Positions 14,840-44,180 are shown, counted from the first letter of the stretch. The stretch is DNA of 64,000 nt from Escherichia coli (GCF_003018255.1 NZ_CP027440.1), one strand, 5' to 3'. The notes: generated from the letters alone by a model not told the origin. Program-made: numbers and translations.

Positions 14840-15072
14840 TGAGATCCCGTTATTTTTATCAATTTTTGTTGCTATCCGATCGCAAAAAAGCCACGTCATA
14901 TGATCAGATAATTCTGATAATGATAGACGCTATTTAACACTTCACACGGTTTGTATATGGAAAAGCATTTTGCTTTTTGTATTCAATTTAGACAGAATTT
15001 TATTAATCATTTCAGGGTAATGGGGTGATGAGATGTTGCGTAACAGGGCCAGAAGGCTAGACTACAAAATAA

Positions 15073-16077
<1,005 letters not shown>

Positions 16078-16351
16078 CAAAAGCAATTTTCCCGGCTGTC
16101 TGTATACAAAAACGCCGCAAAGTTTGAGCGAAGTCAATAAACTCTCTACCCATTCAGGGCAATATCTCTCTTGCAGGTGAATGCAACGTCAAGCGATGGG
16201 CGTTGCGCTCCATATTGTCTTACTTCCTTTTTTGAATTACTGCATAGCACAATTGATTCGTACGACGCCGACTTTGATGAGTCGGCTTTTTTTTGCCTGT
16301 TATTTGTCAGCGTCTACCCTTTAAGAGTCCACCCAATGACCGGAGGGAAAT

Positions 16352-16525
16352 ATGACGACACTTATTTATTTGCAAATTCCTGTCCCTGAACCGATTCCTG
16401 GCGATCCTGTTCCAGTGCCCGATCCGATCCCTCGCCCGCAACCCATGCCTGACCCACCACCCGACGAAGAACCGATTAAATTGTCGCATCGTGAGCGTAG
16501 ATCTGCGAGGATACGCGCCTGCTAA
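16352..16525 (+). CDS. hypothetical proline-rich small protein (57 aa)
   Basis: ATG preceded by a GGAGGG Shine-Dalgarno at 16342-16347; sequence MTTLIYLQIPVPEPIPGDPVPVPDPIPRPQPMPDPPPDEEP...; below the 60-aa cut-off of the ORF track. Confidence 0.4.
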   Translation: MTTLIYLQIPVPEPIPGDPVPVPDPIPRPQPMPDPPPDEEPIKLSHRERRSARIRAC

Positions 16526-16554
16526 CTTTGCGTCGATGACCACGAGAATAGATT

Positions 16555-17928
16555 GTGACCGCTTTTTCTACCCTGAATGTTTTGCCTCCCGCCCAACTCA
16601 CGAACCTTGATGAGTTGGGTTATTTAACCATGACGCCGGTGCAGGCCGCCGCGCTTCCGGCGATCCTTGCCGGAAAAGATGTTCGCGTGCAGGCGAAAAC
16701 CGGCAGCGGCAAAACGGCGGCTTTTGGCCTCGGCTTGTTACAGCAAATTGATGCGTCGCTATTTCAAACCCAGGCTTTAGTGCTGTGTCCTACGCGTGAA
16801 CTGGCGGATCAGGTGGCAGGTGAATTGCGTCGGCTGGCGCGTTTTCTGCCAAATACCAAAATTTTGACGTTGTGCGGTGGTCAACCGTTCGGTATGCAGC
16901 GTGATTCGTTGCAACATGCGCCGCATATTATCGTGGCAACGCCGGGCCGTTTGTTGGATCATCTGCAAAAAGGCACGGTATCACTGGATGCGTTGAATAC
17001 GCTGGTGATGGATGAGGCCGACCGCATGCTGGATATGGGATTTAGCGATGCCATTGATGATGTCATCCGTTTTGCGCCAGCATCTCGACAGACGCTTCTG
17101 TTTTCGGCAACCTGGCCGGAAGCCATCGCCGCAATCAGCGGACGAGTGCAACGCGATCCTTTAGCGATTGAAATTGACTCAACAGATGCTCTGCCACCTA
17201 TTGAACAACAATTTTATGAGACATCCAGCAAAGGCAAAATTCCGTTGTTGCAACGGTTATTAAGTTTGCATCAGCCATCCTCTTGCGTGGTGTTTTGCAA
17301 TACCAAAAAAGATTGCCAGTCTGTCTGCGACGCGCTGAATGAAGTAGGGCAAAGTGCATTGTCGTTACACGGCGATCTGGAGCAACGCGATCGCGATCAG
17401 ACCCTGGTACGTTTTGCTAACGGTAGCGCCCGTGTACTGGTCGCGACTGATGTTGCTGCGCGTGGTCTGGATATAAAATCGCTTGAGCTGGTGGTGAACT
17501 TTGAGCTGGCGTGGGACCCTGAAGTTCATGTACATCGCATCGGTCGTACAGCTCGTGCAGGAAATAGCGGTCTGGCGATCAGTTTCTGTGCCCCGGAAGA
17601 AGCACAGCGGGCCAATATCATTTCTGACATGTTGCAGATAAAACTTAACTGGCAAACGCCGCCAGTTAATAGTTCCATTGTGCCGCTGGAAGCAGAAATG
17701 GCAACGTTATGTATCGATGGCGGGAAAAAAGCCAAAATGCGCCCGGGTGATGTATTAGGTGCGCTGACAGGAGATATCGGGCTTGATGGCGCAGATATTG
17801 GCAAAATCGCCGTGCATCCGGCGCATGTCTATGTCGCGGTGCGTCAGGCTGTTGCTCATAAAGCATGGAAACAGTTACAGGGCGGGAAGATTAAAGGAAA
17901 AACGTGCCGGGTGCGGTTATTAAAATAA
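16555..17928 (+). CDS. dbpA: ATP-dependent RNA helicase DbpA (DEAD-box, 23S rRNA-specific)
   Basis: 457 aa, GTG start, motifs AKTGSGKT, DEAD and SAT present. Confidence 0.9.
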   Translation: MTAFSTLNVLPPAQLTNLDELGYLTMTPVQAAALPAILAGKDVRVQAKTGSGKTAAFGLGLLQQIDASLFQTQALVLCPTRELADQVAGELRRLARFLPNTKILTLCGGQPFGMQRDSLQHAPHIIVATPGRLLDHLQKGTVSLDALNTLVMDEADRMLDMGFSDAIDDVIRFAPASRQTLLFSATWPEAIAAISGRVQRDPLAIEIDSTDALPPIEQQFYETSSKGKIPLLQRLLSLHQPSSCVVFCNTKKDCQSVCDALNEVGQSALSLHGDLEQRDRDQTLVRFANGSARVLVATDVAARGLDIKSLELVVNFELAWDPEVHVHRIGRTARAGNSGLAISFCAPEEAQRANIISDMLQIKLNWQTPPVNSSIVPLEAEMATLCIDGGKKAKMRPGDVLGALTGDIGLDGADIGKIAVHPAHVYVAVRQAVAHKAWKQLQGGKIKGKTCRVRLLK

Positions 17929-17974
17929 TGAAATGTTGAATCGCAGGGTGCAAGAGTAAACATCTTCTTCGGGA

Positions 17975-18056
17975 TTGCCGGATGCGACGCTGGCCGCGTC
18001 TTATCCGGCCTCCATAAGAGTAGCCCGGTAAGCTTGCGCATCGGGCGCTATCCGGG
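17975..18056. repeat. REP (repetitive extragenic palindromic) element(s)
   Basis: GCCGGATGCGACGCTGGCCGCGTCTTATCCGGCC-type palindromic unit between the convergent dbpA and ttcA genes. Confidence 0.55.
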
Positions 18057-18992
18057 TTATTTCACTTCAACCACATTCAGCCGTAACTCATCCAACTGAT
18101 TTTCATCTTCTTCAGGCTGCCAACCCGCCGGTTGTAGAGGGATCTCTTCGCGATCAAACGCCAGATCACCCCCGTTAACCACTTCAGAACCGTGGGTAAT
18201 ACCTTTGAAATCGAACAGGTTGGTATCGCACAGATGCGACGGCACCACATTCTGCATCGCGCTGAACATCGTCTCGATACGCCCTGGATAACGTTTATCC
18301 CAGTCACGCAACATGTCAGCAATCACCTGACGTTGCAGGTTAGGCTGTGAACCGCACAGGTTGCACGGAATAATCGGGAACGCTTTTGCATCGGCAAAGC
18401 GCTGAATATCTTTCTCGCGGCAGTAGGCCAGCGGGCGAATCACGATATGTTTGCCATCATCGCTCATCAGTTTCGGAGGCATACCTTTCATCTTGCCGCC
18501 GTAGAACATATTTAAGAACAACGTTTGCAGGATATCGTCACGATGGTGACCCAGCGCGATCTTCGTCGCTCCCAGTTCCGTTGCGGTACGATAAAGGATA
18601 CCGCGACGAAGACGAGAACACAGTGAGCAAGTGGTTTTGCCCTCCGGAATCTTCTCTTTCACGATACCGTAAGTGTTCTCTTCCACAATCTTGTACTCAA
18701 CGCCCAGCTTTTCAAGATACTCGGGCAGAACGTGTTCCGGAAAGCCCGGTTGCTTTTGATCGAGGTTAACAGCCACCAGCGAAAAATTGATTGGCGCGCT
18801 TTGCTGCAAATTGCGCAGAATTTCCAGCATGGTATAGCTATCTTTACCCCCGGAGAGGCAAACCATGATGCGATCGCCTTCTTCAATCATATTGAAGTCA
18901 GCAATGGCTTCGCCCACGTTACGACGCAGGCGTTTTTGTAATTTGTTCAGGTTGTATATTTCTTTCTTCGTATTCTTTTGATTTTCTTGCAT
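18057..18992 (-). CDS. ttcA: tRNA 2-thiocytidine(32) synthetase TtcA
   Basis: 311 aa with SGGKDS PP-loop motif and CxxC pairs; its 5' end overlaps the prophage attL. Confidence 0.9.
18943..18957. other. attL core of the Rac-like prophage (TTGTTCAGGTTGTAT), inside the ttcA 5' coding region
   Basis: The same 15-mer recurs at 32764-32778 with diverged but related flanks. Confidence 0.55.
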
Positions 18993-19043
18993 TATTTCAG
19001 TTCTCTGGTACTAAATGGGGCAAATTGGGGGCAAACTTTGCAA

Positions 19044-20279
19044 CTACGATAACCGCGCATTCAACATGGCTACCTGTTCGTCGTTCATGTCATCAATCCA
19101 CATACCGTAAATTTCATACACCATCTGCGCAGTTTCATGCCCCATCTGGCTGGCTATAAACGCCGGGTTCGCTCCTGCCGTCAACAGCCAGCAGGCAAAA
19201 GTATGCCGCGTATGGTACGGATTACGGCGGCGAATACCAGCACGTTTTACTGCTGCATTCCATCTCGCACCCAAACTGCTTACCGAGTAATAAGGTTTCT
19301 GTTTTCCGTTACACACTCTGGGCATGAAAACAAAATGCAGTTTTTGCTTTTCGGTTCTGCCGTACTCCCGATGATAAAAAGTGATTTCGCTTTTGCGATG
19401 ATGCCCGGTCAGTTTGTATTGCTCCTTCAGTGCTTCAAGAGCAGGCTGCAGTAGTGTTACCGTCCGGATCCCCGCATTTGTTTTTGGGGGACCGAACATA
19501 TCAAGTATCGTCAGGTTTCTTCTGACATTCACAACTCCCTTCTCGAAATCCACATCCTCCCACGCCAGAGCAGCCAGTTCCCCGTGACGAAGCCCGGAGT
19601 ATACGGCAAATTTCCACAAGTTCTGGCTCTGTCCTTTTTCACTTTCCATTAATGCATTGAATTCTGTTTTAGATAACGGGTCAGGCTTTATTCTGTTTCT
19701 CTGTAATTTTTTTACTCCTTCAAATGGTTTGGTTGATATAAATCCCGACTGATACGCAAAACGTAACAACGAACAGAGCAGGGCGATATAATTATCAACT
19801 GTGCGCACGGTTCTTCCTTTTTTGTTGGATCTTGGATTATCTAGGTAAAGCGTTTCTCCATGCAGCAGTTCATTCCGGTAGTTTAAGATATCGCTATAAC
19901 GAATATGCGATATCGGGGTACTCTCACAAATTATTATCCTGAGTGTTTTTAATTGTGATTTCGTTTTCTTCATTGTGTTTGTTGTTAACTCTGTTTCTTT
20001 AATTTTTGTCCAGATATCACAAAGCTCCCCGAACGTTTTTATGACCCTCGTTGTCACCATTTTTGCCCCAGTGCTGGACTGGGGAAAACGTCTTAAATAC
20101 TCAAACTCACCGGAATTGATTTCATGAACTATCAACGCTCTTAAATTCCCGGCTTTTTTAATGTTACTGTTAGTAACCTCCCAGCCTTTCAATGTTTCCC
20201 GACATCGTTTTCCTCGAAACATGAACCAGATGCGAATGTATTTACCTCGAATCTCGACACCTGTTGGTAATTTAGACAT
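19044..20279 (-). CDS. intR: Rac prophage tyrosine integrase IntR
   Basis: 411 aa with a C-terminal tyrosine-recombinase catalytic region (HxxR ... Y); immediately inside attL. Confidence 0.9.
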   Translation of the reverse strand: MSKLPTGVEIRGKYIRIWFMFRGKRCRETLKGWEVTNSNIKKAGNLRALIVHEINSGEFEYLRRFPQSSTGAKMVTTRVIKTFGELCDIWTKIKETELTTNTMKKTKSQLKTLRIIICESTPISHIRYSDILNYRNELLHGETLYLDNPRSNKKGRTVRTVDNYIALLCSLLRFAYQSGFISTKPFEGVKKLQRNRIKPDPLSKTEFNALMESEKGQSQNLWKFAVYSGLRHGELAALAWEDVDFEKGVVNVRRNLTILDMFGPPKTNAGIRTVTLLQPALEALKEQYKLTGHHRKSEITFYHREYGRTEKQKLHFVFMPRVCNGKQKPYYSVSSLGARWNAAVKRAGIRRRNPYHTRHTFACWLLTAGANPAFIASQMGHETAQMVYEIYGMWIDDMNDEQVAMLNARLS

Positions 20280-20280
20280 A

Positions 20281-20496
20281 TCATGAGTCTTTGATAAACT
20301 GATTTATCTTTGGATAGTTGTACCAGATAATTCCTCGCTTACTGTCTGGCTTCCCTAAAGGAGATACTCGTTTGAAGTGGAAGCCTTCCACCCAACAGTT
20401 CTGGCGGTATGCTTCAATTTGTCTGGCCCCCAGACCAGTGCGAAGCATCAGGCCGTATTCAACCATCCACTCTTCATTAAAGATTACTTGTGCCAT
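20281..20496 (-). CDS. xisR: excisionase-like protein XisR (YdaQ)
   Basis: Start at [11 protein letters not shown] gives 71 aa; directly upstream of intR. Confidence 0.7.
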
Positions 20497-20595
20497 CGCA
20501 TTACCTCTGGCAGGCGCCAATGTTAGACTTAAATTGACGCCCGATGTTGATTATTAATAATCAGCTATGAAGTTTTAATTTGAATACAATGCAAT

Positions 20596-20796
20596 TCACG
20601 AGGACTGAAGTTTCTCGCAATTAAAATTTATCAGTTTTACTTTCTGCTCTCTGGAAACGCCTGCTTCTTTTTTACCTGAGAGCATTTTTTCGCATTCTGA
20701 TTTAGTTAGTTTATATTTTGAATATCTTGTCCAGTTAGTAGGAGTGCCACCTTCCTTTTCAATAGTGGCGGTAATTTTATACATGAACACCTCCAT
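20596..20796 (-). CDS. rcbA: Rac prophage protein RcbA (YdaC)-like
   Basis: ORF 20596..20856; contains MYKITATIEKEGGTPTNW...; exact start is ambiguous (Met at 20796 or 20784). Confidence 0.5.
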   Translation of the reverse strand: MEVFMYKITATIEKEGGTPTNWTRYSKYKLTKSECEKMLSGKKEAGVSREQKVKLINFNCEKLQSS

Positions 20797-20971
20797 TATT
20801 ATTTCCAGTGGTTCGTTTATTCCATCTTTCGAGTGCTTCTTTTTCACTTCCACCATAACCGGTTCGGGATTCGCATCCGTTACACTTCGCTCGGTAATAT
20901 CCTGAAATGGCTTTCACCGTTACTGATGGACAACCACAAAATGGACATGGTTTAACATTGTCATATCTCAT
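20777..20971 (-). CDS. ralR: restriction alleviation protein RalR (Lar), zinc-finger small protein
   Basis: Start at MRYDNVKPCPFCGCPSV gives 64 aa with two CxxC pairs. Confidence 0.75.
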   Translation of the reverse strand: MRYDNVKPCPFCGCPSVTVKAISGYYRAKCNGCESRTGYGGSEKEALERWNKRTTGNNNGGVHV

Positions 20972-21027
20972 AATTTTTCTCATAAAAAATATTTCAAGTT
21001 GGCGGTGCATTACACCGCCAGGCTGAA

Positions 21028-21843
<816 letters not shown>

Positions 21844-21909
21844 ATTTTATAACCCAGAACGGGCGTCAGAAATGACGCCTTTTTTATTGCAGAAAAGCGA
21901 GAGGTAATT

Positions 21910-22509
21910 ATGCGTAAACTTTATGCCGCCATTTTGTCCGCAGCCATTTGTCTGGCCGTATCCGGTGCGCCTGCATGGGCGTCTGAACATCAGTCCACGC
22001 TGAGCGCGGGGTATCTTCATGCCCGGACGAACGTTCCCGGCAGTGATGATCTGAACGGGATTAACGTGAAATACCGTTATGAGTTTACGGACACACTGGG
22101 GATGGTGACGTCATTCAGCTATGCAGGAGACAAGAATCGTCAGCTGACCCGTTACAGCGATACCCGCTGGCATGAAGATTCCGTTCGTAACCGCTGGTTC
22201 AGCGTAATGGCGGGGCCGTCTGTGCGCGTGAATGAATGGTTCAGCGCGTATGCGATGGCGGGTGTGGCTTACAGCCGTGTGTCGACTTTTTCCGGGGATT
22301 ATATCCGCGTAACTGACAATAAGGGGAAAACGCACGATGTGCTGACCGGAAGTGATGACGGTCGCCACAGCAACACGTCTCTGGCGTGGGGGGCTGGCGT
22401 GCAGTTTAACCCGACCGAATCCGTGGCCATTGATATTGCTTATGAAGGCTCCGGCAGTGGTGACTGGCGCACTGACGGTTTCATCGTGGGTGTCGGTTAT
22501 AAATTCTGA
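21910..22509 (+). CDS. lom: Lom/Ail/OmpX-family outer-membrane beta-barrel protein (prophage Lom)
   Basis: 199 aa with signal peptide, alternating beta-strand pattern and C-terminal GYKF. Confidence 0.85.
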   Translation: MRKLYAAILSAAICLAVSGAPAWASEHQSTLSAGYLHARTNVPGSDDLNGINVKYRYEFTDTLGMVTSFSYAGDKNRQLTRYSDTRWHEDSVRNRWFSVMAGPSVRVNEWFSAYAMAGVAYSRVSTFSGDYIRVTDNKGKTHDVLTGSDDGRHSNTSLAWGAGVQFNPTESVAIDIAYEGSGSGDWRTDGFIVGVGYKF

Positions 22510-22573
22510 TTAGCCAGGTAACACAGTGTTATGACAGCCCGCCGGTTCAGGCGGGCTTTTTTGTGGGGTGAAT

Positions 22574-25500
22574 ATGGCAGTAAAGATTTCAGGTGTACTG
22601 AAAGACGGTGCAGGTAAACCGGTACAGAACTGTACAATCCAGCTGAAAGCAAAACGTAACAGCACCACGGTGGTGGTGAACACGGTGGCCTCAGAAAATC
22701 CGGATGAAGCCGGGCGTTACAGCATGGACGTTGAGTACGGTCAGTACAGCGTTATTCTGTTGGTGGAAGGATTCCCGCCGTCACATGCCGGGACCATCAC
22801 CGTGTATGAAGATTCCCGACCCGGTACGCTGAATGATTTTCTCGGTGCCATGACGGAGGATGATGCCCGTCCGGAGGCTCTGCGCCGTTTTGAACTGATG
22901 GTGGAAGAGGTGGCGCGTAACGCGTCCGCGGTGGCACAGAACACGGCAGCCGCGAAGAAATCAGCCAGCGATGCCAGCACATCAGCCCGTGAGGCGGCAA
23001 CCCATGCGACTGATGCTGCAGATTCAGCACGTGCAGCCAGCACGTCAGCCGGACAGGCCGCTTCGTCGGCTCAGTCAGCGTCTTCCAGCGCAGGAACGGC
23101 ATCAACAAAGGCCACTGAAGCCTCAAAAAGTGCTGCCGCTGCAGAGTCCTCAAAAAGCGCGGCGGCTACCAGTGCCGGTGCGGCGAAAACGTCAGAAACG
23201 AATGCGGCAGCGTCACAACAATCAGCAGCCACTTCTGCATCCACCGCGACCACGAAAGCGTCAGAAGCTGCCACCTCAGCCCGGGATGCGTCGGCCTCAA
23301 AAGAGGCAGCGAAATCATCAGAAACGAACGCATCATCAAGTGCCAGTAGTGCAGCTTCCTCGGCAACGGCGGCAGGAAATTCCGCGAAGGCCGCAAAAAC
23401 GTCTGAGACGAATGCAGATAACAGCGCACAGGCGGCAGCAGACTCACAAACTGCATCAGCAAACTCCGCGACAGCAGCCAAAAAATCAGAAACCAACGCG
23501 AAAAATAGCGAGGCAGCAGCAAAGAGCAGCGAAACCAACGCTAAAGCCAGCGAAACTAATGCTAAATCCAGTGAAACAAACGCGGCGAAATCTGCGGCGG
23601 ACGCACTTAATTATCGCAACCAGGCGCAAGTAATTGTTGGCGATAATATCGGTCTTGGTGAAGTTGCCATGACCTGCACTGATATCTCTGTTGAGCCATC
23701 AGGTTATATTGGATTTGTCAGGATTTACATCTCAGCGAAAGGTTATCCATCAGTAGCGTCTAGTGCCGGTGATAATCTTATTTCTGGTTATATAGTTAGA
23801 TCAGAAGTGTCAACAAAAAGATATTCCGGTCTATTTGTTGGTTCAGATACAAAATCATTGTATTCGTACATTTACAGCCAAAGTTCTGGCCCGCAATGGA
23901 TACGTCATACCCGCAGAGATGAATTAAGCCGCTTTGGTCAAAATGAATCAACAACTCGTATGTATGGTCCAACTGGTGATCGTTTCTTTGAAATCCATAC
24001 TAACGGGAGTTGGGGAGTTTATGATTCTTCTTCTGGACAATGGTCTCCGTTAGGTTTAGCCCAGGGCGGTACTGGTGGAAGAACTATCGAGCAAGCACGT
24101 GCGAACTTGCGGGTAATGTATGAGCAAAAAGCTGGCCTTGCTAATACTGACCTAAACACCCTTACCGGTGAATATTCTGGTTTCTATCAACAACCAACGA
24201 GCGCTTACGCAACAGAAGAATTAAATTACCCAATCGGTCTGGCGGGCGCTTTAATAGTGCTCCAAACGAGAGCCAACACTGCTTCTTCCTGCGTTCAGGT
24301 GTACTACCCTTATAATAATCCGGGAATTACTTATAGACGAATATATGAAGGAGGAAGCGGTACCTGGTCTGAATGGAAGAGAGATGTATCAACAGAAAGG
24401 GTTGAAGAGGGAAAAGAAACAACTTACGTATATTCTACGTATTCTTCAGGCGCACCACGCTTACAGGTTTCCAAATCTGGTTTGTGGGGTTGTCATAATG
24501 GCACTGGCTGGTTGCCATTAGCTGTTGGGCAAGGAGGTACAGGTGCGACAACAGTAGAAGATGCGCGAAACAACTTAAGTCTTGGCGAAAGTAGCGCAGT
24601 TAAATTTAAAAACCTTACTTTAACCGAAGCGCTCGACACGACATTAGGACTGCTTACAAAAACAGGACGAGACTGGAACACGCAGCATACTGATAACATT
24701 AATAAATTTATACCAATTGCAGGCAGTACAAACGGCCCGGCAGGTTCTATGGTTCTTGGCGGCATTCATGTTCAATTTAGTAAAAATTATGCTGTGCAGT
24801 TCGGAGGCCGCAATTCCGGTTTTTGGGGAAGAACAATTGAAAATGGAACGACGCAGGAATGGAAGAAATTACTAACAGTAGACGATCTCAATTCATCTAC
24901 CGATCTTGCTGTCAGGTCATTAACCACATCTAACCCGGTAAAATCTGGCGGAGGGCGAATTGATGTCCTTGGAAGCACGTCAGACTATAGCAAAATGGAT
25001 TGCTTTGTACGTGGGTTTGATAGCACCGGTAATTCTCTCGCGTGGGCGTTGGGTTCATCAGTCGGCGTAAGTAAGATGCTGTCGCTAAAAAATTTCTTTA
25101 GCGGAGCTGAGATACTGTTAAATGGTAATGACGGCGCGGTTCAACTCAAAACAGGTGCTGTTAACGGGGCTAAAGCGCAGGCGCTCACTATCAACAAGGA
25201 TGAGGTTAACTCAACTGTTGATTTAACTCTTACAAAACAAACAGGGACTGGAAATCGTTTTGTTTTACAGAACTTAGGTAATACAGAACTATCATTTGCC
25301 GCAAAAGTATGGGGATCAAGTGATCGACAAAACGTTTTTGAGGTTGGAACGTCTGCTGCGTATCTGTTTTATGCGCAAAAAACGTCAGCAGGCCAGTTGT
25401 TTGATGTAAATGGCGCTATTAATTGCACAACGCTGAATCAGTCATCAGACCGCGACCTTAAAGACGATATTCTCGTTATCAGCGACGCGACGAAAGCAAT

Positions 25501-25879
25501 CCGTAAAATGAACGGATACACCTACACGCTCAGGGAAAACGGGATGCCTTATGCTGGCGTTATTGCACAGGAAGTAATGGAGGCGATACCAGAAGCTGTG
25601 GGATCGTTTACTCATTACGGTGAAGAGTTGCAGGGACCAACGGTTGACGGCAATGAATTACGTGAAGAAACACGTTATCTGAATGTTGACTACGCCGCCG
25701 TGACGGGGTTACTTGTTCAGGTCGCCCGTGAAACAGATGGTCGCGTTACCGCGCTGGAAGAGGAAAACATAACGCTACGTAAAAATCTGGCAACAGCAGG
25801 CACCCGGATCAGCACTCTGGAAAATCAGGTAAGCGAACTGGTTGCACTTGTCGGGCAGTTAACAGGAAGCGAACATTGA
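22574..25879 (+). CDS. stf: side tail fibre protein (lambda Stf-like N-terminus, Ala/Ser-rich repeat shaft, C-terminal endosialidase-type intramolecular chaperone / peptidase S74-like domain)
   Basis: Start MAVKISGVLKDGAGKPVQNC resembles the lambda Stf N-terminus; long AAxxSxTxA repeat region; C-terminal SDRDLKDD ... coiled-coil tail typical of self-cleaving fibre chaperone domains. Confidence 0.8.
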   Translation: MAVKISGVLKDGAGKPVQNCTIQLKAKRNSTTVVVNTVASENPDEAGRYSMDVEYGQYSVILLVEGFPPSHAGTITVYEDSRPGTLNDFLGAMTEDDARPEALRRFELMVEEVARNASAVAQNTAAAKKSASDASTSAREAATHATDAADSARAASTSAGQAASSAQSASSSAGTASTKATEASKSAAAAESSKSAAATSAGAAKTSETNAAASQQSAATSASTATTKASEAATSARDASASKEAAKSSETNASSSASSAASSATAAGNSAKAAKTSETNADNSAQAAADSQTASANSATAAKKSETNAKNSEAAAKSSETNAKASETNAKSSETNAAKSAADALNYRNQAQVIVGDNIGLGEVAMTCTDISVEPSGYIGFVRIYISAKGYPSVASSAGDNLISGYIVRSEVSTKRYSGLFVGSDTKSLYSYIYSQSSGPQWIRHTRRDELSRFGQNESTTRMYGPTGDRFFEIHTNGSWGVYDSSSGQWSPLGLAQGGTGGRTIEQARANLRVMYEQKAGLANTDLNTLTGEYSGFYQQPTSAYATEELNYPIGLAGALIVLQTRANTASSCVQVYYPYNNPGITYRRIYEGGSGTWSEWKRDVSTERVEEGKETTYVYSTYSSGAPRLQVSKSGLWGCHNGTGWLPLAVGQGGTGATTVEDARNNLSLGESSAVKFKNLTLTEALDTTLGLLTKTGRDWNTQHTDNINKFIPIAGSTNGPAGSMVLGGIHVQFSKNYAVQFGGRNSGFWGRTIENGTTQEWKKLLTVDDLNSSTDLAVRSLTTSNPVKSGGGRIDVLGSTSDYSKMDCFVRGFDSTGNSLAWALGSSVGVSKMLSLKNFFSGAEILLNGNDGAVQLKTGAVNGAKAQALTINKDEVNSTVDLTLTKQTGTGNRFVLQNLGNTELSFAAKVWGSSDRQNVFEVGTSAAYLFYAQKTSAGQLFDVNGAINCTTLNQSSDRDLKDDILVISDATKAIRKMNGYTYTLRENGMPYAGVIAQEVMEAIPEAVGSFTHYGEELQGPTVDGNELREETRYLNVDYAAVTGLLVQVARETDGRVTALEEENITLRKNLATAGTRISTLENQVSELVALVGQLTGSEH

Positions 25880-26086
25880 TATCCTTCAAGCCCTGAAGGA
25901 GGCTGTTCCTGGTACGTTCAGACTGTTGTTGAGCTGGAAATCGCAACGGAGGAAGAAACTTCGTTGCTGGAAGTCTGGAAAAAGTATCGGGTGTTGCTGA
26001 ACCGTGTTGATACATCAACTGCACCTGATGTTGATTGGCCAGCAGCACCGAAGTGTAATTCATTAGAACTCATCACCTGTGAATAA
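25880..26086 (+). pseudogene. orphan 3' remnant of a tail-fibre-assembly (tfa) gene
   Basis: In frame with stf immediately after its stop, no start codon; encodes ...[29 protein letters not shown]..., a Tfa-type C-terminal motif by recollection. Confidence 0.45.
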
Positions 26087-26687
26087 TATCTGTTTTTGAG
26101 TAAGTTAGTAATAATCACTTAAATGTGTTATGAGTTTGTTGAGGCGTGATTTGCAATAGGATAGAGAGTACGATTATGGATTGAGAATAAGAAAGCGCCA
26201 TGAAAGAGTTTCATGGCGAGTACATAAACGTACAAAATATGATGAAAGTAGAGTGGCATAAGCCACTATGTTAACTTATAGCAATAGGGAAGATAAGTAA
26301 ATAATATTTCTTGAGTATAGTGTAAGTCGTTCATTGTAAAGCGTTAATGTTATCTATATTGTTTATCTTAAAATAAGGTGTATAAACCAAACTTTTGAGC
26401 TAAAAGTTTAAAGAGTATTAGTGCAAAAATAATGTTTAATAAGATAATCAATTTGCTTTGTATCTTCATTTCGAAAGATTGCTAAGTAACGTTAATTACC
26501 AAAACGATAGATCAGAATTATCTTAGAGTCAATGACTTTAGGTTTGTTTATAATGTAAATATTTTCTATTTGTTATAAGTTTTCTTAATATAGTCACCCA
26601 TGCAACTTGTTCCGTGTGGAGATTAAAGGTTAAAATTTAATGCGAAGATGGAATTATATTATATTTGTTATAATTAATTTAACCTTA

Positions 26688-26770
26688 ACATCGTTGCTGG
26701 CGGCATGGAAGAAATATCGGGTCTTGCTGATGTCGTGTTGGCACTTCCTTAGTGCCGGATATCGAGTGGC
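26688..26770 (+). pseudogene. second, frameshifted tfa-like C-terminal remnant
   Basis: Encodes ...[10 protein letters not shown] then, after a +1 shift, RVGTSLVPDIEWPAAPIG; a degenerate direct repeat of 25955-26060. Confidence 0.3.
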
Positions 26771-26987
26771 CAGCTGCACCTATAGGGTAAAAATATAGTT
26801 CTATATGGGAGCGCTATTTTTACAATATAAATGCTGAACGGAAGAATCTAACCAGTTACAAAAAACATAGTTATGTAATCCAGTTGCCTGGGCATGCGTG
26901 TGATGTTGATAGCTATTACTGTATCTTCCGTTCACTTACCTTATTGTGAACAGTTATATATAATTTGATCTGCTCTTATTCAGCCTG

Positions 26988-28190
26988 CTAGGCTGCTGTA
27001 AATCTTCGATACTTTCTTAACATAAAGATCATGATTAGAATAATTGAAAGTAAGTAAACAATCCAAATGGTGATATTTCGTTCAATTAAAAAGCTACCAA
27101 TTCCGCCGATCACTGAAGGAATCACCAGAGAAGCGGCCCCCATTAACGCAGATGTGGCACCCAGACTGGTACGTTGGCTGGACATAGTTAGGTAAGTATA
27201 AAGTGATTCGAACATACCTCCGGCAAACATCAAAACAATGAAGAATAATATAAAAACATTGACATGATGAACGAATATTATTAGCGGAGTGCACAATACG
27301 ATAAATGAAGCAATGAGCTTCAGCCATAAACTCAAAATTTGTGGTGCAGACCGCTTCTTAAGTAGTTTACCTGATAGTGCTGCTCCCAGCAGAAGGAATC
27401 CTCCAATAATTGATGAGATAACACCAAATTGCGTAGATGAGTATCCATACTTAACCATCAAAATAAATGGGGAAGCTGTGACATAACAATAAATTAGAGA
27501 GAATGAAAGTCCAAGAGAAAGGCAAGGTAGATAAAATCTTGGTTGCTTACTTATCTCTTTGTACGTAAGAAATGATGATTTTAGTGAATATGTAATCCGT
27601 TTTTTATGACTGAGTGTTTCAGGGAAGTTAAAATAGACATACGTTAATGTTACAACAGAATATCCTAATATCATTAGAAAAATTGCACGCCATCCCCATA
27701 CATCATTAATTATTCCTCCCAGCAGTGGAGAAGCAATAGGCACGACACCTTCAATAGTTATGATAATAGCGTACAGTGTAGCAGCCACTGAACCGCGTGT
27801 TACATCACGAACGGCACTAATTGCTGTAACCAGAGTTATTGATATAGAAAGCCCCTGTATGATGCGTATTGTAAGAAACGTACCCAATCCGGTCGAGAGT
27901 GTGAGGCAATATGTTGTCACACAATAAATAATAGCACCTGAAAGCATAATTCTTCGACGACCAATAGAATCAGATAATGGGCCAAAAATTAGCTGTCCAA
28001 AACCTATACAAAGGGTATAAACCATGATAGACAATTGCATGGACGGGATGTTTTGTCTAAATTCTTTTGCGATGTCAGGAATTGAAGGCAAATAAGTGTC
28101 CACACCTAGAATGCCCATAATAGTCAGCAGCGATAGGCCAATAGTAAAGAAAAGTATATTCTTTCTGTGAATAACAACTTGTGATTTCAT
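26988..28190 (-). CDS. MFS transporter (12-TMS, Bcr/CflA-like drug:H+ antiporter family), AT-rich foreign gene
   Basis: 400 aa, highly hydrophobic, with the MFS signature GPLSDSIGRRR after TM2; GC content visibly far below the flanking DNA. Confidence 0.8.
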   Translation of the reverse strand: MKSQVVIHRKNILFFTIGLSLLTIMGILGVDTYLPSIPDIAKEFRQNIPSMQLSIMVYTLCIGFGQLIFGPLSDSIGRRRIMLSGAIIYCVTTYCLTLSTGLGTFLTIRIIQGLSISITLVTAISAVRDVTRGSVAATLYAIIITIEGVVPIASPLLGGIINDVWGWRAIFLMILGYSVVTLTYVYFNFPETLSHKKRITYSLKSSFLTYKEISKQPRFYLPCLSLGLSFSLIYCYVTASPFILMVKYGYSSTQFGVISSIIGGFLLLGAALSGKLLKKRSAPQILSLWLKLIASFIVLCTPLIIFVHHVNVFILFFIVLMFAGGMFESLYTYLTMSSQRTSLGATSALMGAASLVIPSVIGGIGSFLIERNITIWIVYLLSIILIMIFMLRKYRRFTAA

Positions 28191-28952
28191 TATTTATCAC
28201 CATGAATAAATTAAAAGAATGAAAAAAACTCCATTTAAATGGAAGGAGGTGGATAATTATCGTGTAGGCAATACAACAGAGTTGAAAAGAACTGTCAAAC
28301 TTTTAACTCAAAAAAGTGAGATGTGAATCACAGACATAAAAATCATCTTTTTCAGCCCTATGGTTCAGTTAAATTTGATTGTTATCGTACGAAGGTTTGA
28401 ACGTGTGTGTGCGTATGCGGTATTTTTTCTTGCGAGTGCCGGAGTTATGAGAGCGTTGTATTAACCTTCATAATCTGACCTATTCAATTGATTCCAGTAC
28501 ACCAATGGGTATTTTGGTGTTATGGTATGTGACTCCAAATAAAATGGAGCGTGAACTGATAGTTGTGCGAACAAAAGTCGGACTAGAAACCGCTCGGGTA
28601 CAGTGGCGAATTGGAGTTGGCGACCCAAACTGACCTAGGAACAATCGTTGCAGATCGGACGATTAATTTCATCAGAAATTCCTCGCTAAAAGGTGGCTAT
28701 CACTGTGATGTTAACGTATCTAATTTGTACAAGAAATTTCTGCGGGGGAAAATGAAACCGCAGACTCGTTGTATGCAAAAACGTGCTGCGGCTAACTGGT
28801 GAACTTTCGATAGTGCGGGTATTGAATGATTTCTAGGCGTTATCGATTTTACGTATTTTTTGCATGATAGAATTCGTACCTCCTCCCAACGACCTTCCAT
28901 GGCTTTCCGGACTTCTGTAGGCCGGCGGACGATGCTGTCCTCGGATGTTGTG

Positions 28953-29810
28953 CTAATTGGGTGATAACAGATCCTGTGTATGGGAGTTTCCCTTTGTGCG
29001 TGCGTTGATGCTGGTAACGGTAAACGTCATGATGAACACGACCGCGAATAAGACGACAATCGTCGGAGCTGGTGCGCTGTCGATAAAAAAGGACAACCAG
29101 ACACCAGTCATTGACACTATTACCGATATGCCAGTCGCCAGTAGGAGCGCAATATGAAAGCGTTGTGTCAGGAGTACCGCAATGGCGCCAGGCGCTATGA
29201 GCAGAGAAATGGAGAGAATGATACCTACCGCTTTCAGCGTCGCCACAATGGTCAGAGAGACCATGCACAGCAGCCCATAATGCAGCCATCTCGTATGCAA
29301 ACCGCTTACCTGCGCCTGTTGATAATCAAAGCTGAACAGCAAAAAATCCCGCCATTTTACGCTAATAACAAGTGTAACCAGCCCGGCAATAATCATCGTC
29401 TGGATTATATCGCCGATGGTTATCCCGAGCATGTCGCCGAAAAGAATATGGTCAAGATGTACGTCTGGTTTGACTGCAATATACAAGATCAGACCTGCGG
29501 CAAACATGCCAGAAAAAACAATCCCCATCACTGTATCTTGCTTGATTCGGCTGTTGTCTTTCAGGTATCCCGTCGCCACCGCGCAGAATACTCCGGCGAC
29601 GAATGCCCCTGTAGCTAAAGGTAACCCCAGAATCCAGGCAAGCACGATGCCAGGAAAAACTGCATGACTCATCGCGTCACCCATCAGTGCCCAACCTTTC
29701 AGGACCAGAAAGACCGACAGCAGCGCACAGGGTATGGAAACTACCAGTGAAATCAGCAGTGCGTGACTCATAAAGGTGAACTGCAGTGGCTCCAGTAATA
29801 ATGCCATCAT
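28953..29810 (-). CDS. sitD: Mn/Fe ABC transporter permease SitD
   Basis: 285 aa integral membrane permease; last gene of the four-gene operon; overlaps sitC by 4 bp. Confidence 0.9.
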   Translation of the reverse strand: MMALLLEPLQFTFMSHALLISLVVSIPCALLSVFLVLKGWALMGDAMSHAVFPGIVLAWILGLPLATGAFVAGVFCAVATGYLKDNSRIKQDTVMGIVFSGMFAAGLILYIAVKPDVHLDHILFGDMLGITIGDIIQTMIIAGLVTLVISVKWRDFLLFSFDYQQAQVSGLHTRWLHYGLLCMVSLTIVATLKAVGIILSISLLIAPGAIAVLLTQRFHIALLLATGISVIVSMTGVWLSFFIDSAPAPTIVVLFAVVFIMTFTVTSINARTKGNSHTQDLLSPN

Positions 29811-30664
29811 GAGCGATCCTCCAGCGCCTTATGCGCACGCCGACGATTTGCCAAAAGCCCATGGGTGGGCGCAAAGACAAATGCTAAAAGAAACAGCAGT
29901 GTCTGCGCCACCACGATGATTCCACCTGTCGCGCCGTCCAGAAAGTAACTGACCCACGAGCCGAGGAAACTGGTTACACTGCCAATAGTTACAGCAATCA
30001 TGAGCAGGCGGGGAAAACGATCGGTTAACAACCATGCTGTTGCACCGGGAGTCACCACCAGACAGATCACCAGAAAGGCACCAACCGTTTGCAGCGCCGC
30101 AACGGTCGAAACCGACAGCAGGGTGAAGAAGAGGAGTTTTAATCTGCCCGGATGCAATCCAATAGCACGGGCGTGATTCTCGTCGAAAAAGGTCACCATA
30201 AGATCTTTCCATTTGAAAAAAAGCACGATGATCGAGAGAATGCCAATGATAGTGAGTTGCAGGATATCCGCCGGATCGATTGCCAGAATATTGCCCAGGA
30301 CGATGGTCTGAATGTTCACAGATGTCGGGTTCAATGACACCATAAACAGCCCCAGGCCAAAAAAGGATGAGAAGATCAGGCCGATGATGGCATCTTCTTT
30401 TAAGCGGGTGCGTTGGTTAAGAAACAGCATGCTGCCCGCAGCCAGTCCGCCGGAAAAGAAGGCTCCCAGAGAAAACGGAAGCCCCAGCATATATGCTCCC
30501 GCAACACCCGGGACAATAGAGTGCGACAACGCATCGCCAATCAGCGACCAGCCTTTTAGCATCAGATAGCATGACAGGAAAGCGCAGAGACCGCCGACCA
30601 TCGCCGAGACCCACATCGCATTGAGCATATATTCATAGCTGAAGGGTTCCAGTAGCACGTTCAT
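29807..30664 (-). CDS. sitC: Mn/Fe ABC transporter permease SitC
   Basis: 285 aa permease paralogous to SitD; 4-bp overlaps on both sides. Confidence 0.9.
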
Positions 30665-31488
30665 CTTTCTTCCCTCTGCACCGCTGACGGTCGATGAGCC
30701 ACAAAAGGGCGTTCATCGTCAGTAATAATGCTTTCTTCCGAGCCGTTAAGTGTGACATGGCGCAGTACGCCGCTAAAAGCCAGCTCCAGGTTCTCGGCTG
30801 TAAAAGTGGTGTCTGTCGGCCCGCTTGCCAGGACGGTGCCTTTGACCATGACCGTATAATCGCAAAATGTCGTGACGGATCCGAGATTGTGTGTTGAGAC
30901 AAGCATCGTTTTGCCTTCCGCGCGTAACTCCCTCAACAGGCTGATGATTTTGGCTTCGGTTTTCACATCAACGCCAGTAAAAGGTTCATCCAGCAGGATC
31001 ACATCACCCTGCTGTGCAATCGCTCTCGCCAGAAAGACGCGTTTCTTTTGTCCACCGGAAAGCTCGCCGATTTGTCGATGGCGAAAATTCACCATATCGA
31101 CACGTTCCAGCGCATCGGTGACAATTTGACGATCCCTCTTTTTGGCGATACGCAACATACCCATATGCCCATAGCGGCCCATCATCACCACATCTTCCAC
31201 CAGTACAGGAAATGACCAGTCAACCTCTTCTGACTGAGGGACGTAGGCAACCAGGTTTTTCTGTAACGCCTGTCGCGTGGGAATACCCAGAACAGATATC
31301 TTTCCGCTGGTCAGACGCACAAATCCCATAATCGCTTTAAACAACGTCGATTTTCCGGAACCGTTTACCCCAACCAGAGCGGCAATAGATCCACTTGGTA
31401 CTGTGAAGGATGCATCGCGCAGTGCTGTGTGCCCGTTACGCCAGGTGACAGTAACATCATTAACGACAATGCCTGCAGATTGCATCAT
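30661..31488 (-). CDS. sitB: Mn/Fe ABC transporter ATP-binding protein SitB
   Basis: 275 aa with Walker [13 protein letters not shown] signature LSGGQKKR and Walker B ILLDEP. Confidence 0.9.
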
Positions 31489-32402
31489 TATTTCTCCCTT
31501 TTCCCGGCTTTAATTCCCTGTACCAGCGTACTGGTAGTAACCTTAAGAAGGTCGATATACGTCGGTACCGGGCCGTTTTCTGTGCTCAGGGAATCGACAT
31601 AGAGCACACCGCCGTAGTGTGCGCCGGTTTCACGCGCAACCTGACGCGCTGGTTTATCGGAAATCGTACTCTCGCTAAAGACTGCCGGGATATGATTTTT
31701 CTTAACTATATCAACAACCTTACGTACCTGTTGCGGTGTTCCTTGTTGATCGGCATTAATCGGCCACAGATAAAGCTCTTTTAGCCCCAAATCGCGTGCG
31801 AGATAAGAAAAAGCCCCTTCACTGGTGACCATCCACCGCTGATTCTCAGGGAGTTCCGTAATCTGCTTACGCAGGGGGGCAAGGGTTTGGGTAATCTTGG
31901 CTTTATAAGTATCGGCATTACGTTGGTAGGTTTGTGCATTAGCGGGATCGTATTTTATCAACGCATCACGAATATTATCGACGTAAATCAGAGCATTATC
32001 TGGCGACATCCATGCATGGGGGTTAGGTTTGCCCTCATAGGGGCCTTCGGTGATCCCTACTGGCGTCACACCCGAAGAGACAATTACTTCTGGAACCCCA
32101 TTGAGATGCTGGTAAAAGCGTTGGAACCACAATTCCAGATTCATACCATTGGCGAGGATCAGTTGTGCCCCCTGCGCACGTTTAATATCGCCAGGGGTAG
32201 GCTGATACTCATGAATTTCTGCACCGGGCTTGGTTATGGATGAGACTTCTGCAGCATCTCCAGCCACGTTTTTGGCCATATCCGCGATGATGGTAAATGT
32301 TGTAATGACCTTGAATTTTTCAGTTGCACTTGCCTGAAATGCGATCGAGCAGGTGAGGGCGAGGCACCCCAAGAGCATGGTTACTTTTTTTATTGAGTGC
32401 AT
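31488..32402 (-). CDS. sitA: periplasmic Mn/Fe-binding protein SitA (cluster A-I substrate-binding protein)
   Basis: 304 aa with signal peptide; first gene of the operon; 1-bp overlap with sitB. Confidence 0.9.
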
Positions 32403-32434
32403 AATTTAGTACCTATAGTGAGCAAAATTAGAAC

Positions 32435-32456
32435 AAACATAGCAACGGCTATGTTT
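32435..32456. promoter_or_regulatory. MntR box (perfect palindrome AAACATAGC-N4-GCTATGTTT) in the sitA promoter
   Basis: Perfect 9-bp inverted repeat 33 bp upstream of the sitA start; matches the MntR operator consensus as I recall it. Confidence 0.65.
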
Positions 32457-32477
32457 TATAGCACAACCTATACAAAA

Positions 32478-32496
32478 TGAAAATGATTATCATTAA
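32478..32496. promoter_or_regulatory. Fur box in the sitA promoter
   Basis: TGAAAATGATTATCATTAAC matches the GATAATGATAATCATTATC Fur consensus at most positions. Confidence 0.6.
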
Positions 32497-32610
32497 CAAC
32501 TTTGTGGCCCAAAACAGGGATTAGGTTGTTTCCTGCTGGCGACATGGTATTGAGGAAAAAAGCAGGGCAGCTATTAGGCTTTGAAATGACTTTATGAGGA
32601 AAATTTTTGA

Positions 32611-32655
32611 TGGCAAAAATGGGGCAAAACGCTGTAGAAGGGGCAAAAAAGGGGC
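32611..32655. repeat. three direct GGGGCAAAA(A) repeats in the prophage arm next to attR
   Basis: GGGGCAAAAC ... GGGGCAAAAAA GGGGCAAAAAAA; two similar copies lie at 19019-19038 next to attL. Confidence 0.6.
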
Positions 32656-32763
32656 AAAAAAAGAGTGGATTATCGTAGCTTATTGTTGTCGCTGATAATG
32701 TTTAACATATTGAAAAATAAATAAAATACTTATGAGTCAGATAGTTGTGATTTTTGCCCTTAC

Positions 32764-32813
32764 TTGTTCAGGTTGTATTGTTCTTTCTTACTAATTTCTT
32801 GATTTTGCGACAT
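32764..32813 (-). pseudogene. ttcC: ttcC: duplicated ttcA 5' fragment at attR (core TTGTTCAGGTTGTAT at 32764-32778)
   Basis: Reverse strand encodes MSQNQEISKKEQYNLNK-stop, paralogous to the TtcA N-terminus [17 protein letters not shown]. Confidence 0.6.
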
Positions 32814-32988
32814 TTAAAAGCGACTCAATTCGTTATATGGCATCAGAAGAGTATGCGTCATGCCGGAACGCCCAGCATAAGAAATCTGATATAAAAACTG
32901 TGGCGTGTATGGTACGGATTAGAGGGGAAAATGTCAGCACATTTGCGAAATGAATCAAAAAGCCCGCAGCAATGTGCGGGCGTTAGTG

Positions 32989-33504
<516 letters not shown>

Positions 33505-33563
33505 TTAGATCAAAGGAGGAAGAATAAGCAGAAAAAGCCCGCCATAACAGCGGGCAGGAGGAT

Positions 33564-34697
33564 TTAGAACTGATAAACCAGACCTAAAGCGACAATATCA
33601 TCGGTAGAGATGCCGTTGGCAGCGTAGAAGCTGTCATCTTCATCCAACAGGTTTATTTTATAGTCAACGTAGGTGGACATATTTTTGTTGAAATAGTAAG
33701 TCGCGCCAACATCGGCGTATTTAACCAGATCTTTATCATCAACACCTGCCGGGTTGTCTGCACCACCGGCAGCGTGCAGGTCACGGCCTTTAGACATCAG
33801 GAAAGAGACTGCCGGACGCAGACCAAAATCAAACTGGTACTGTGCAGTAACTTCAAAGTTCTGGGTTTTGTTCGCAACTGCATAATCGCTGTCGCCAAAC
33901 GGGGTCATGTTACGCGTTTCTGAATACATGGTTGCCAGGTAAATATTGTTAGCATCGTATTTTAGCCCAGCAGTCCACGCGTCTGCTTTATCACCACCCG
34001 CCGCAGTATGGTTAACCTGGTCATTGGTGCGGTCAGAAGAGGTGTATGCCGCACCAGCGCTAAAGCCCATGCCTAAATCATATGTTGTGGAAAGACCCCA
34101 GCCGTCACCGTTTTCATGGCGAACATCACGTCCGTTGTTGGTGCCTTCCTGACCATTACTGGCTCCTTCGTTGTTACCTTGATACTGCACCGCGAAGTTC
34201 AGACCATTTACCAGACCGAAGAAATCAGTATTACGATAAGTCGCGACGCCGTTGGCACGACCAGTCATAAAGTTGTCTGCATTGGTATAAGAGTCACCGC
34301 CAAATTCAGGCAGCATATCGGTCCAGCCTTCGATGTCGTACATTACGCCATAATTACGTCCGTAATCGAAAGAACCGTAATCTGCAAATTTCAGTCCGGC
34401 AAATGCCAGACGGGTCCATGACTGGTTTGTTGAAGATTCAGTGTTGTTTGCCTGAATATTGTATTCCCATTGACCGTAGCCAGTGAGTTGATCGTTAATT
34501 TGGGTTTCGCCTTTAAAACCCAGACGCGCATAGCTCTGGTCGCCATCTTTCGCTGAATTATCAGAAAAATAATGCAGGCCATCAACTTTGCCATACAGAT
34601 CTAATTTGTTGCCGTCTTTATTATAAACTTCGGCTGCATGTGCAGCACCTGCGGCGAGCAGGGCAGGAATTAAAAGTGCCAGTACTTTGCTTTTCAT
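33564..34697 (-). CDS. ompN: outer membrane porin OmpN (OmpC/OmpF family)
   Basis: 377 aa with signal peptide, general porin pattern and C-terminal ...GLVYQF. Confidence 0.9.
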
Positions 34698-35004
34698 TGA
34701 ATAAATCCTTTAGTTATTTTATTTGCCTTTTATCCCCATTTCGGGGAGTGAAAACATCCTAAAGGAGAAGTTCAGTTAGCCGATAAATATCATTTGTTAC
34801 GCCTTAAGTAAAACCTTAATCAAATAATTCTACGGAAATGATAATAAGTCTGGTGAATGTATTGAAGATAATACATACAAAATAAAAATTATACTTTTAA
34901 TTTGCTATACGTTATTCTGCGCGGGTTATATGCCTTTATTGTCACAGATTTTATTTTCTGTTGGGCCATTGCATTGCTACTGATTTTCCAACATATAAAA
35001 AGAC

Positions 35005-35035
35005 AAGCCCGAACAGTCGTCCGGGCTTTTTTTTA
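35005..35035. terminator. hairpin plus T-run downstream of ydbK (bidirectional appearance)
   Basis: AAGCCCGAACAGTCGTCCGGGCTTTTTTTTT, flanked by A/T runs on both sides. Confidence 0.45.
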
Positions 35036-35062
35036 GAATTGGATAATCCTTATCCAGTGCAT

Positions 35063-44009: not shown

Positions 44010-44180
44010 TAGCAAAACCGCAATATCGGGATAACGCTACAGGAGAAGACGATTAATCTATTTTCCGGAAACAACGTGAATATTCAAAAATTCCTGTCAA
44101 ATTGCCTTTCGCCCTGAAAAATGCATAGTCAAATATCTGTTTTAACTAATTCGCGTTGCTGTACATGCAACGCGAATTAG

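Follow-up and report, generated by a model that had tools for sequence, protein, structure and literature searches.

We analysed a stretch of 64,000 nucleotides (nt) from Escherichia coli (GCF_003018255.1, NZ_CP027440.1), hereafter called the window, and found that an insert of 13.8 kb in its ttcA gene is almost certainly a defective lambdoid prophage of the Rac family. The element as a whole is best explained, with high confidence, as a Rac-type prophage carrying the sit metal-transport genes that was reduced chiefly by one internal deletion and kept its parts for excision. An earlier note, made from the sequence alone, had described a heavily reduced Rac-like prophage in ttcA bracketed by direct repeats with related flanks, and comparison with Rac of strain K-12 and with other E. 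coli genomes agrees with this description. The element is ordinary and represents nothing new in kind: Rac-type prophages in ttcA, sitABCD as a phage moron, and prophage decay by deletion are all documented.

The boundaries of the element are set by a 15-nt core (TTGTTCAGGTTGTAT), which occurs in the window exactly two times, at 18943..18957 (attL, plus strand) and at 32764-32778 (attR), compared with 0.01 copies expected by chance. The distance from core start to core start is 13,821 bp, and the insert proper (18958-32763) measures 13,806 bp. At the left boundary lies the intact ttcA gene for tRNA 2-thiocytidine synthetase (18057..18992, minus strand; 311 amino acids; NCBIfam NF007972, 513 bits with a cut-off of 272), whose 5′ end forms the 50-mer 18943-18992 and whose first 35 nt (18958-18992) are phage-derived. 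On the other side, the attR core is followed by the displaced original 5′ end of ttcA (“ttcC”, 32779-32813, minus strand). The two 50-mers, 18943-18992 and 32764-32813, are identical at 39 of 50 positions; lack of homology between the right segment and the ttcA 5′ end was one of the findings that the earlier note had named as speaking against its proposal. The attR/ttcC segment is moreover identical to attR and the “ttcC” pseudogene of K-12 and to the ttcA 5′ end at the empty site of genome E04. A break in synteny had been named as the other such finding, and here, too, the order dbpA-ttcA on the left and uspF-ompN-nifJ on the right is the same as in K-12. E04 is the closest complete genome by flanking sequence (99.7% over 20 kb) and has ttcA directly beside uspF. 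Removing the insert in silico and joining the flanks at the core gave a sequence collinear with E04 at 99.2-99.5% identity, in which the 100 nt on either side of the junction are identical. Since the join reproduces the empty site, we conclude that the element was inserted precisely into the attachment site of Rac.

The assignment to the Rac family is also supported by the left arm, which adjoins attL and carries orthologues of IntR and XisR. The tyrosine integrase gene intR (19044..20279, minus strand; 411 amino acids; PHROG 1, integrase) is intact, and its product shares 406 of 411 residues with K-12 IntR, the five substitutions being conservative; in locus L021, the record of the same gene lists the Pfam domains Arm-DNA-bind_2 and Phage_integrase. 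The excisionase gene xisR (20281..20496, minus strand; PHROG 539, excisionase) is likewise intact and encodes a protein identical to K-12 XisR over all 71 residues. It is followed by rcbA, a DUF1187 gene (20596..20784, minus strand; NF007283, 139 bits), by ralR (20777..20971, minus strand) and by a recT remnant of about the last 100 codons (21028..21328, minus strand), which covers positions 188-268 of the 275 positions of the RecT profile. Thus, the synteny rcbA-ralR/RalA-recT-recE typical of Rac is preserved up to a truncated recT, and because recE is deleted we call the element a remnant. The RacR/YdaS immunity region and the replication genes ydaUV, which full-length relatives possess, are absent from 18958-32763.

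How the remnant arose can be read from the junction at which the minus-strand recT fragment meets a plus-strand fragment of the tail tip gene J (21325..21332). Homology to recT of K-12, GF54 and 21F61 stops at 21328-21337, while homology to full J genes begins at 21324. In a three-way comparison of the window, K-12 recT and J of genome A21 (L002, NZ_CP028754.1), the sequence switches from recT to J at about 21328/21329, with 2-4 nt of microhomology (GG-TA type). As only microhomology is found at the junction, the deletion was illegitimate, being neither homologous nor mediated by an insertion sequence (IS). An IS-mediated deletion was considered and rejected, as no IS or transposase is present at the junction.

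Full-length relatives show what is missing. Genome 21F61 carries a 53,574-bp prophage with all lambdoid modules between the same cores, in a host flank 99.4% identical to that of the window; its left arm matches window positions 16353-21337 at 99.56% and its right arm positions 25917-36000 at 99.57%, both without gaps. The full-length prophage of GF54 has the same layout, including the S74-type stf gene and the tfa stubs described below, and a further locus (L022) with a complete J gene and the same stf matches the window from exactly position 21324 onward at 99.57%. Therefore, the window element corresponds to such a prophage minus about 39.8 kb. The loss starts midway through recT and extends up to the last 173 codons of J, and the reduction is essentially one internal deletion of about 40 kb rather than piecemeal decay.

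The gene content between the cores is in agreement with such a loss. No terminase, portal, capsid, tail tube, tape measure, lysis, repressor or replication genes are present there, and of the late region only the J fragment, lom, stf and the tfa stubs survive. The earlier note's statement that replication, lysis and capsid functions are gone was therefore borne out: the element lacks the make-up of a functional, inducible lambdoid prophage, and particle formation is impossible. The inventory given there (intR, xisR, rcbA, ralR, fragments of recT and J, lom and tfa remnants) was recovered in full, with one correction regarding stf, which had been called a remnant and turned out to be a complete gene. 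The small size of 13.8 kb, the intact int and xis genes and the precise att sites might also suggest a phage satellite or mobilisable island resembling the phage-inducible chromosomal islands, in which int and xis are kept for packaging by a helper phage. We consider this extremely improbable: no replication initiator, primase, packaging-redirection gene or small terminase subunit was found between the cores, the cos region was deleted along with the terminase genes, and everything the element contains can be aligned, in unchanged order, with the left and right ends of an ordinary lambdoid prophage. The satellite interpretation was rejected for want of a replication module of its own and of packaging-hijack genes.

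The right arm begins with the J remnant (21329..21843, plus strand), which comprises about the last 173 codons and aligns to positions 986-1163 of the 1163 positions of the lambda_TipJ profile. It is followed by lom (21910..22509, plus strand), an intact gene for an outer-membrane β-barrel protein of 199 amino acids that is a moron and is matched by PHROG 108 over positions 1-199 of 199. Terminator-like hairpins flank lom on either side (21861-21880 and 22536-22557); promoter and terminator scans were at background level overall and served only for placing named sites. The side tail fibre gene stf (22574..25879, plus strand) is full length with 1101 codons and is matched by PHROG 6578 to the last position; its product contains a Pfam phage_tail_N domain (residues 3-136) and a C-terminal Peptidase_S74 domain, an intramolecular chaperone (residues 960-1011). 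Downstream, a 3′ stub of tfa (25934..26086, plus strand) matches only the C-terminal part of the tail fibre assembly families PHROG 105/188, and a second tfa stub lies at about 26691-26790. Small open reading frames (ORFs) in the gaps 26087-26987, 28191-28952 and 32521-32646 gave no PHROG match except for the tfa stub. Annotation of the full-length prophage of GF54 shows these stubs, too, and the Caudo_TAP domain is recorded in locus L021. Because a full-length prophage possesses them, the stubs are older than the deletion; they probably reflect the replacement of a tfa-dependent fibre tip by a self-chaperoning S74-type tip.

An identical S74-type Stf of 1101 amino acids occurs in lambdoid prophages at at least three other chromosomal sites (L023-L030, NCBI assemblies), namely beside cargo of the pinR-ynaE type, near bioA-uvrB and near ompT, indicating that this fibre allele circulates among co-resident prophages. 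One finding in the same region fits less well with a single deletion: the J′-lom-stf segment differs from that of 21F61, whose arms are otherwise the closest, being 95.9% identical or unalignable. We conclude that at least one tail-fibre exchange occurred besides the deletion. This difference, the presence of the same Stf at other sites, and the tandem remnants with a hybrid att sequence at this very locus in A21 could also be accommodated if the element were a composite, in which the left end of Rac and the right end of another lambdoid prophage were joined by recombination between tandem or separate prophages. Such an origin is improbable: in the full-length prophages of GF54 and 21F61 the same cores enclose both arms, arranged in the same order; the P arm adjoining sit is that of Rac; viral contigs contain sit, attP and int as one continuous block; and the junction contains no att-like or extended homologous sequence.

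With deletion of a Rac-type prophage as the preferred explanation, we turned to its attachment sites. The P′ arm of attL (18958..19043, plus strand) contains two GGGGCAAA repeats (at 19017 and 19028) in addition to the ttcA 5′ end supplied by the phage; it is identical to that of K-12 Rac at 80 of 86 positions, and every difference lies within this phage-derived copy of the ttcA 5′ end. The P arm of attR (32600..32763, plus strand) carries three further GGGGCAAA repeats (at 32621, 32640 and 32651). Over the 160 nt to the left of the attR core, 151 positions are identical to the right end of K-12 Rac, and this homology ends about 165 nt from the core, where the cargo begins. Five of the six copies of GGGGCAAA in the window are located within 150 nt of the cores, and we regard these repeats as candidate arm-type integrase sites. 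A pattern scan identified five IMG/VR contigs in which P arm, core and P′ arm are contiguous, and one of these loci (L017, from a 50.5-kb contig) contains sitDCBA, attP and int-xis-rcbA-ralR-recT in one continuous stretch. L017 thus represents such an element in its circular or phage form, and attL and attR of the window are the two recombinant halves of a real attP. The phage collection yielded no contiguous attP; its records of Rac type are prophage-delimited or contain host flanks.

The earlier note had considered the integration and excision module intact and the element possibly still excisable. Intactness holds for the sequence, as shown above for IntR and XisR, and these two intact genes are accompanied by an identical core, conserved arms and an empty attB in E04. 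In K-12, Rac excises, XisR drives its excision, and xisR is induced via RpoS (PMC4632033). By its conservation with K-12 Rac, the window element is somewhat more likely than not to be excisable as well. Excision of K-12 Rac alters four N-terminal residues of TtcA (PMC4632033), and for the window we predict the N-terminus MSQNQEISKKEQYNL (the MSQNQEIS... form) after excision. Several features weigh against excisability. The perfect identity between attL and attR is 15 nt here versus 26 nt in K-12, a consequence of the phage-derived ttcA codons, which read QKNTKKEI in the window element versus QQITKKEQ in K-12 Rac. The consensus for integration host factor (IHF) at K-12 attL is TAAnnnnTTGATW (PMC8407004), and the variant in the P′ arm of the window (TATTCTTTTGATT, 18971-18983) has TAT in place of TAA, a one-base change. 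All five viral contigs with a contiguous attP carry the K-12-type P′ arm and not the window variant. Finally, everything upstream of recT is deleted, including any early-left promoter feeding xis.

These observations would also be expected if the element were a permanently fixed island, in which int and xis look intact in sequence but never act, either because the xis promoter was lost or because the core or IHF site is unfit. Consistent with such a fate, the remnant in AF3 has a frameshifted intR, indicating that the module is dispensable once the prophage is defective. We nevertheless find fixation unlikely, though it is the most serious of the alternatives. IntR differs from the excision-proficient K-12 protein by no more than the five conservative substitutions and XisR not at all. 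The attL allele of the window recurs in 21F61, whose prophage appears to be complete, and, differing by a single additional base, in Rac-SA53; it is therefore a natural attP allele. With regard to expression, xisR of K-12 responds to RpoS and not to an SOS or early-left signal (PMC4632033), and 840 nt upstream of xisR are kept in the window.

Next to the excision genes, the left arm contains an intact type I toxin-antitoxin pair. The toxin gene ralR encodes a DNase of 64 amino acids that is identical to the K-12 protein at all 64 positions (NF007260, 165 bits with a cut-off of 113). The antitoxin, the small RNA RalA, is encoded on the opposite strand (20600..20778, plus strand; Rfam RF02694, full length, 217 bits versus a gathering score of 170), so that the RalR ORF is accompanied by an antisense RalA that overlaps the neighbouring rcbA gene. 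The rcbA allele itself encodes 62 amino acids versus 69 in K-12 and ends seven codons early through a point change and not an indel; the same short DUF1187 allele is annotated in 21F61, AF10 and 18AR0366.

The cargo of the element is located between the tfa stubs and attR, and all of it is encoded on the minus strand. The first gene (26988..28190) encodes an efflux transporter of the major facilitator superfamily (MFS), a member of the Bcr/CflA family with 400 amino acids (TIGR00710, 204.5 bits with a cut-off of 200.9); GF54 and 21F61 have this gene in their full-length prophages, too. In the window, it is followed by the sitDCBA operon (28953..32402) for a manganese/iron importer of the ATP-binding cassette type, consisting of sitD (28953-29810), sitC (29807-30664), sitB (30661-31488) and sitA (31488-32402). 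SitB passes NCBIfam NF011630 with 593.6 bits (cut-off 393); since an equivalog model exists only for SitB, sitA, sitC and sitD were named from RefSeq annotations of 99% identity. Upstream of sitA, we identified a palindrome (32435-32456, minus strand; AAACATAGCCGTTGCTATGTTT), which we take to be an MntR box on the basis of the mntH/sit consensus. Further upstream, a Fur box matches at 17 of 19 positions (32479-32497, minus strand).

The earlier note had listed non-phage cargo. The cargo is indeed there, in the form of the MFS gene and sitDCBA, but the label does not fit, as sitABCD is a typical lambdoid phage moron. The sit genes are oriented opposite to the tail genes, lie between stf/tfa and attP, and are preceded by the Fur box. 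The order J-lom-stf-sitDCBA recurs, at 95-97% identity, in phage 21, in Perceval and ev017, and in about 20 further lambdoids that were listed, and in phage 21 the sit operon is situated between the side tail fibre gene and attP-int. sitABCD has been reported on 70% of infant-gut lambda phages, always together with a Fur box (PMC6969025), and as a moron of Perceval in strain LF82 (PMC9928086). A review describes the “PAI sit” as unstable, associated with phage-like sequences and located at several chromosomal sites (PMC7545054). No tRNA genes, defence systems detected by PADLOC, IS elements or transposases were found in the element.

To place the element in its population context, we counted its junctions in a set of 5,426 complete genomes of E. 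coli. Nearly all of them (5,410) possess the host flank; the ttcA-intR junction occurs in 2,907 genomes and the sitA-attR-uspF junction in 494. The recT′/J′ junction of the window element is found in none of these complete genomes; it is present in one draft assembly (GCA_018259255.1), which differs from the window at a single position in 23,306 aligned bp. A 236-nt probe for the empty attB gave a count of 4,327 genomes, which is not a count of empty sites, since more than 80% of the probe is covered by attR alone. Other sit-bearing Rac remnants of 13-16 kb are found in 18AR0366, AF10 (with IS1), AF3 (with IS1) and FT130 (with IS3). Since these independent remnants have different end points, reduction to both ends plus cargo is a recurrent process.

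The same comparisons yielded some observations on related loci. In A21 (14497-16783), the sequence past sitA continues with an attP-like hybrid junction consisting of a P arm, a core and a 231-nt 3′ fragment of int, followed by a DUF1627 fragment and a second, divergent sitD-like pseudogene (67-70% identical to window positions 29041-29732) immediately before uspF is reached; these are the remains of serial integrations at the same site. The record ON032529.1 (L006, “Salmonella phage SPF_0923”) ends in uspF, ompN and a partial nifJ, that is, in the E. coli chromosomal flank, and what is presented as a “complete phage genome” appears to be a prophage region with misplaced limits, not a packaged genome. 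Several “vB_EcoS” records likewise include dbpA-ttcA. Elsewhere in the window, at approximately 44180-44540 (coordinates mapped via E04), only fused fragments of feaR and paaX are left between ydbL and paaY, and by collinearity with E04 the window lineage has lost the feaB-tynA-paaZ-paaA..K cluster, which spans about 20 kb or more in K-12 and GF54.

The position of intR relative to ttcA deserves attention, as its stop codon and the start of ttcA on the same strand are separated by only 51 nt. From this spacing it follows that in lysogens ttcA must be transcribed from within or through intR. On this reading of the sequence, expression of a host gene would be tied to the end of the prophage.

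A related observation concerns the “empty” ttcA site. Beyond attR, in the host sequence that separates ttcC from the uspF terminator, a 51-nt block (32894-32944, minus strand) is identical to intR (19197-19247) at 39 of 51 positions. It has the same orientation relative to the core as intR, is located 80-130 nt upstream of the original ttcA start, and translates to KCADIFPSNPYHTRHSF versus KRAGIRRRNPYHTRHTF in IntR (codons K..NPYHTRH.F). The local alignment score of 27 compares with a mean of 10.4 (standard deviation 1.25, maximum 19) in 2,000 dinucleotide shuffles and with a maximum of 17 among 353 other tiles of the window. The block is present in the empty site of E04, in K-12, and in the “empty” ttcA-uspF sites of Citrobacter and Lelliottia, and among E. 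coli, Citrobacter and Lelliottia it is the best-conserved stretch of this intergenic region. Between Citrobacter and E. coli, identity amounts to 47-48 of 51 positions in the block versus about 80% from the block to the ATG and about 24% upstream of it; for Lelliottia, the corresponding values are 43 of 51 positions, 44%, and 4 of 12 aligned positions. The block also holds a σ70-like pair (CTGACA and TACCAT, separated by 17 nt), whose –10 element precedes the ttcA ATG by about 95 nt.

We tentatively propose, as a possibility we rate somewhat below even chances, that the “empty” attB is a fossil attL, in which the stub of an ancient Rac-type integrase may have been taken over as the ttcA promoter. 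Under this proposal, later erosion would have to spare the promoter stub, which would explain graded C-terminal integrase fragments beside ttcA across Enterobacteriaceae. In a survey of GTDB species representatives, the 26-nt Rac att sequence was found exactly in 21 loci (L031-L051) of Citrobacter, Enterobacter, Shimwellia, Lelliottia, Mangrovibacter and Raoultella. The genes of the IntR family beside ttcA in these loci range from 411 amino acids down to C-terminal stubs of 172, 146, 117, 96, 87, 55 and 26 amino acids, and in C. youngae ATCC 29220, ttcA, a 96-amino-acid int stub and uspF lie within 1.1 kb. If the proposal is right, the window element would represent one stage of a recurring cycle of integrating, deleting the middle and keeping the ends. 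It would also be a small but concrete case of phage DNA turned into host regulatory sequence, and the published interpretation of the excised TtcA′ form as ancestral would need qualification.

Taken together, we suggest the following history for the element. A sit-carrying phage of about 53 kb integrated at the 5′ end of ttcA, with IntR recombining within the 15-nt core and the phage supplying substitute first 12 codons of ttcA. Later, a single illegitimate deletion of about 39.8 kb fused the central part of recT with the J 3′ end, thereby removing recE, kil, the immunity and replication regions, Q and the lysis genes, trkG, the terminase and head genes, and most of the tail genes. The remnant would now act as a chromosomal island in which SitABCD is expected to import Mn2+ and Fe2+ under control of host Fur and MntR, with Lom and the MFS exporter as further cargo, and the RalR/RalA pair may penalise loss of the element. 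IntR and XisR could still excise it as a non-replicating 13.8-kb circle; TtcA would thereby return to the MSQNQEIS... form, and the cell would lose sit, the MFS gene, lom and RalR/RalA. Although of little importance by itself, the element illustrates clearly how a virulence-associated metal importer can outlast its gutted phage vehicle, and a possible loss in one step by excision may bear on the reported instability of the sit island.

Among the closest known systems is Rac of K-12, together with the Rac-like prophages CP-933R, Sp10 and Rac-SA53. The window element shares with K-12 Rac the ttcA site, the core, the P and P′ arms and the displaced ttcC, as well as the left arm intR-xisR-rcbA-ralR/RalA-recT at 97% nucleotide identity, and its excision would yield the same TtcA′ N-terminus. 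In contrast, K-12 Rac is 23 kb in size and keeps recE, kilR, sieB, racR, ydaSTUVW, trkG, stfR, tfaR and pinR, of which (recE to pinR) the window element retains only the tail fibre. The cargo at the right end differs as well, with the MFS gene and sitABCD in the window element versus pinR-ynaE in K-12 Rac.

A second group comprises the sit-carrying lambdoids (phage 21, Perceval of LF82, ev017 and the Lambda_ev series) together with the “PAI sit” island known from Shigella and E. coli; they have the order J-lom-stf-(tfa)-sitDCBA-attP-int, sit genes of 95-97% identity and a Fur box upstream of sitA. The sit lambdoids are complete and inducible, and some use other integrases and sites (icd in case of phage 21), whereas the window element is a deletion derivative with a Rac integrase and an extra MFS gene between tfa and sitD. 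A third group consists of the remnants in 18AR0366, AF10, AF3 and FT130, which are likewise located between ttcA and uspF and have int-xis-rcbA-ralR-recT on the left and sitABCD on the right. The deletions in these four end at other positions, and an IS1 or IS3 marks several of the junctions, whereas the window element is free of IS elements, is cut deeper in the left arm (inside recT), and keeps lom and the whole of stf.

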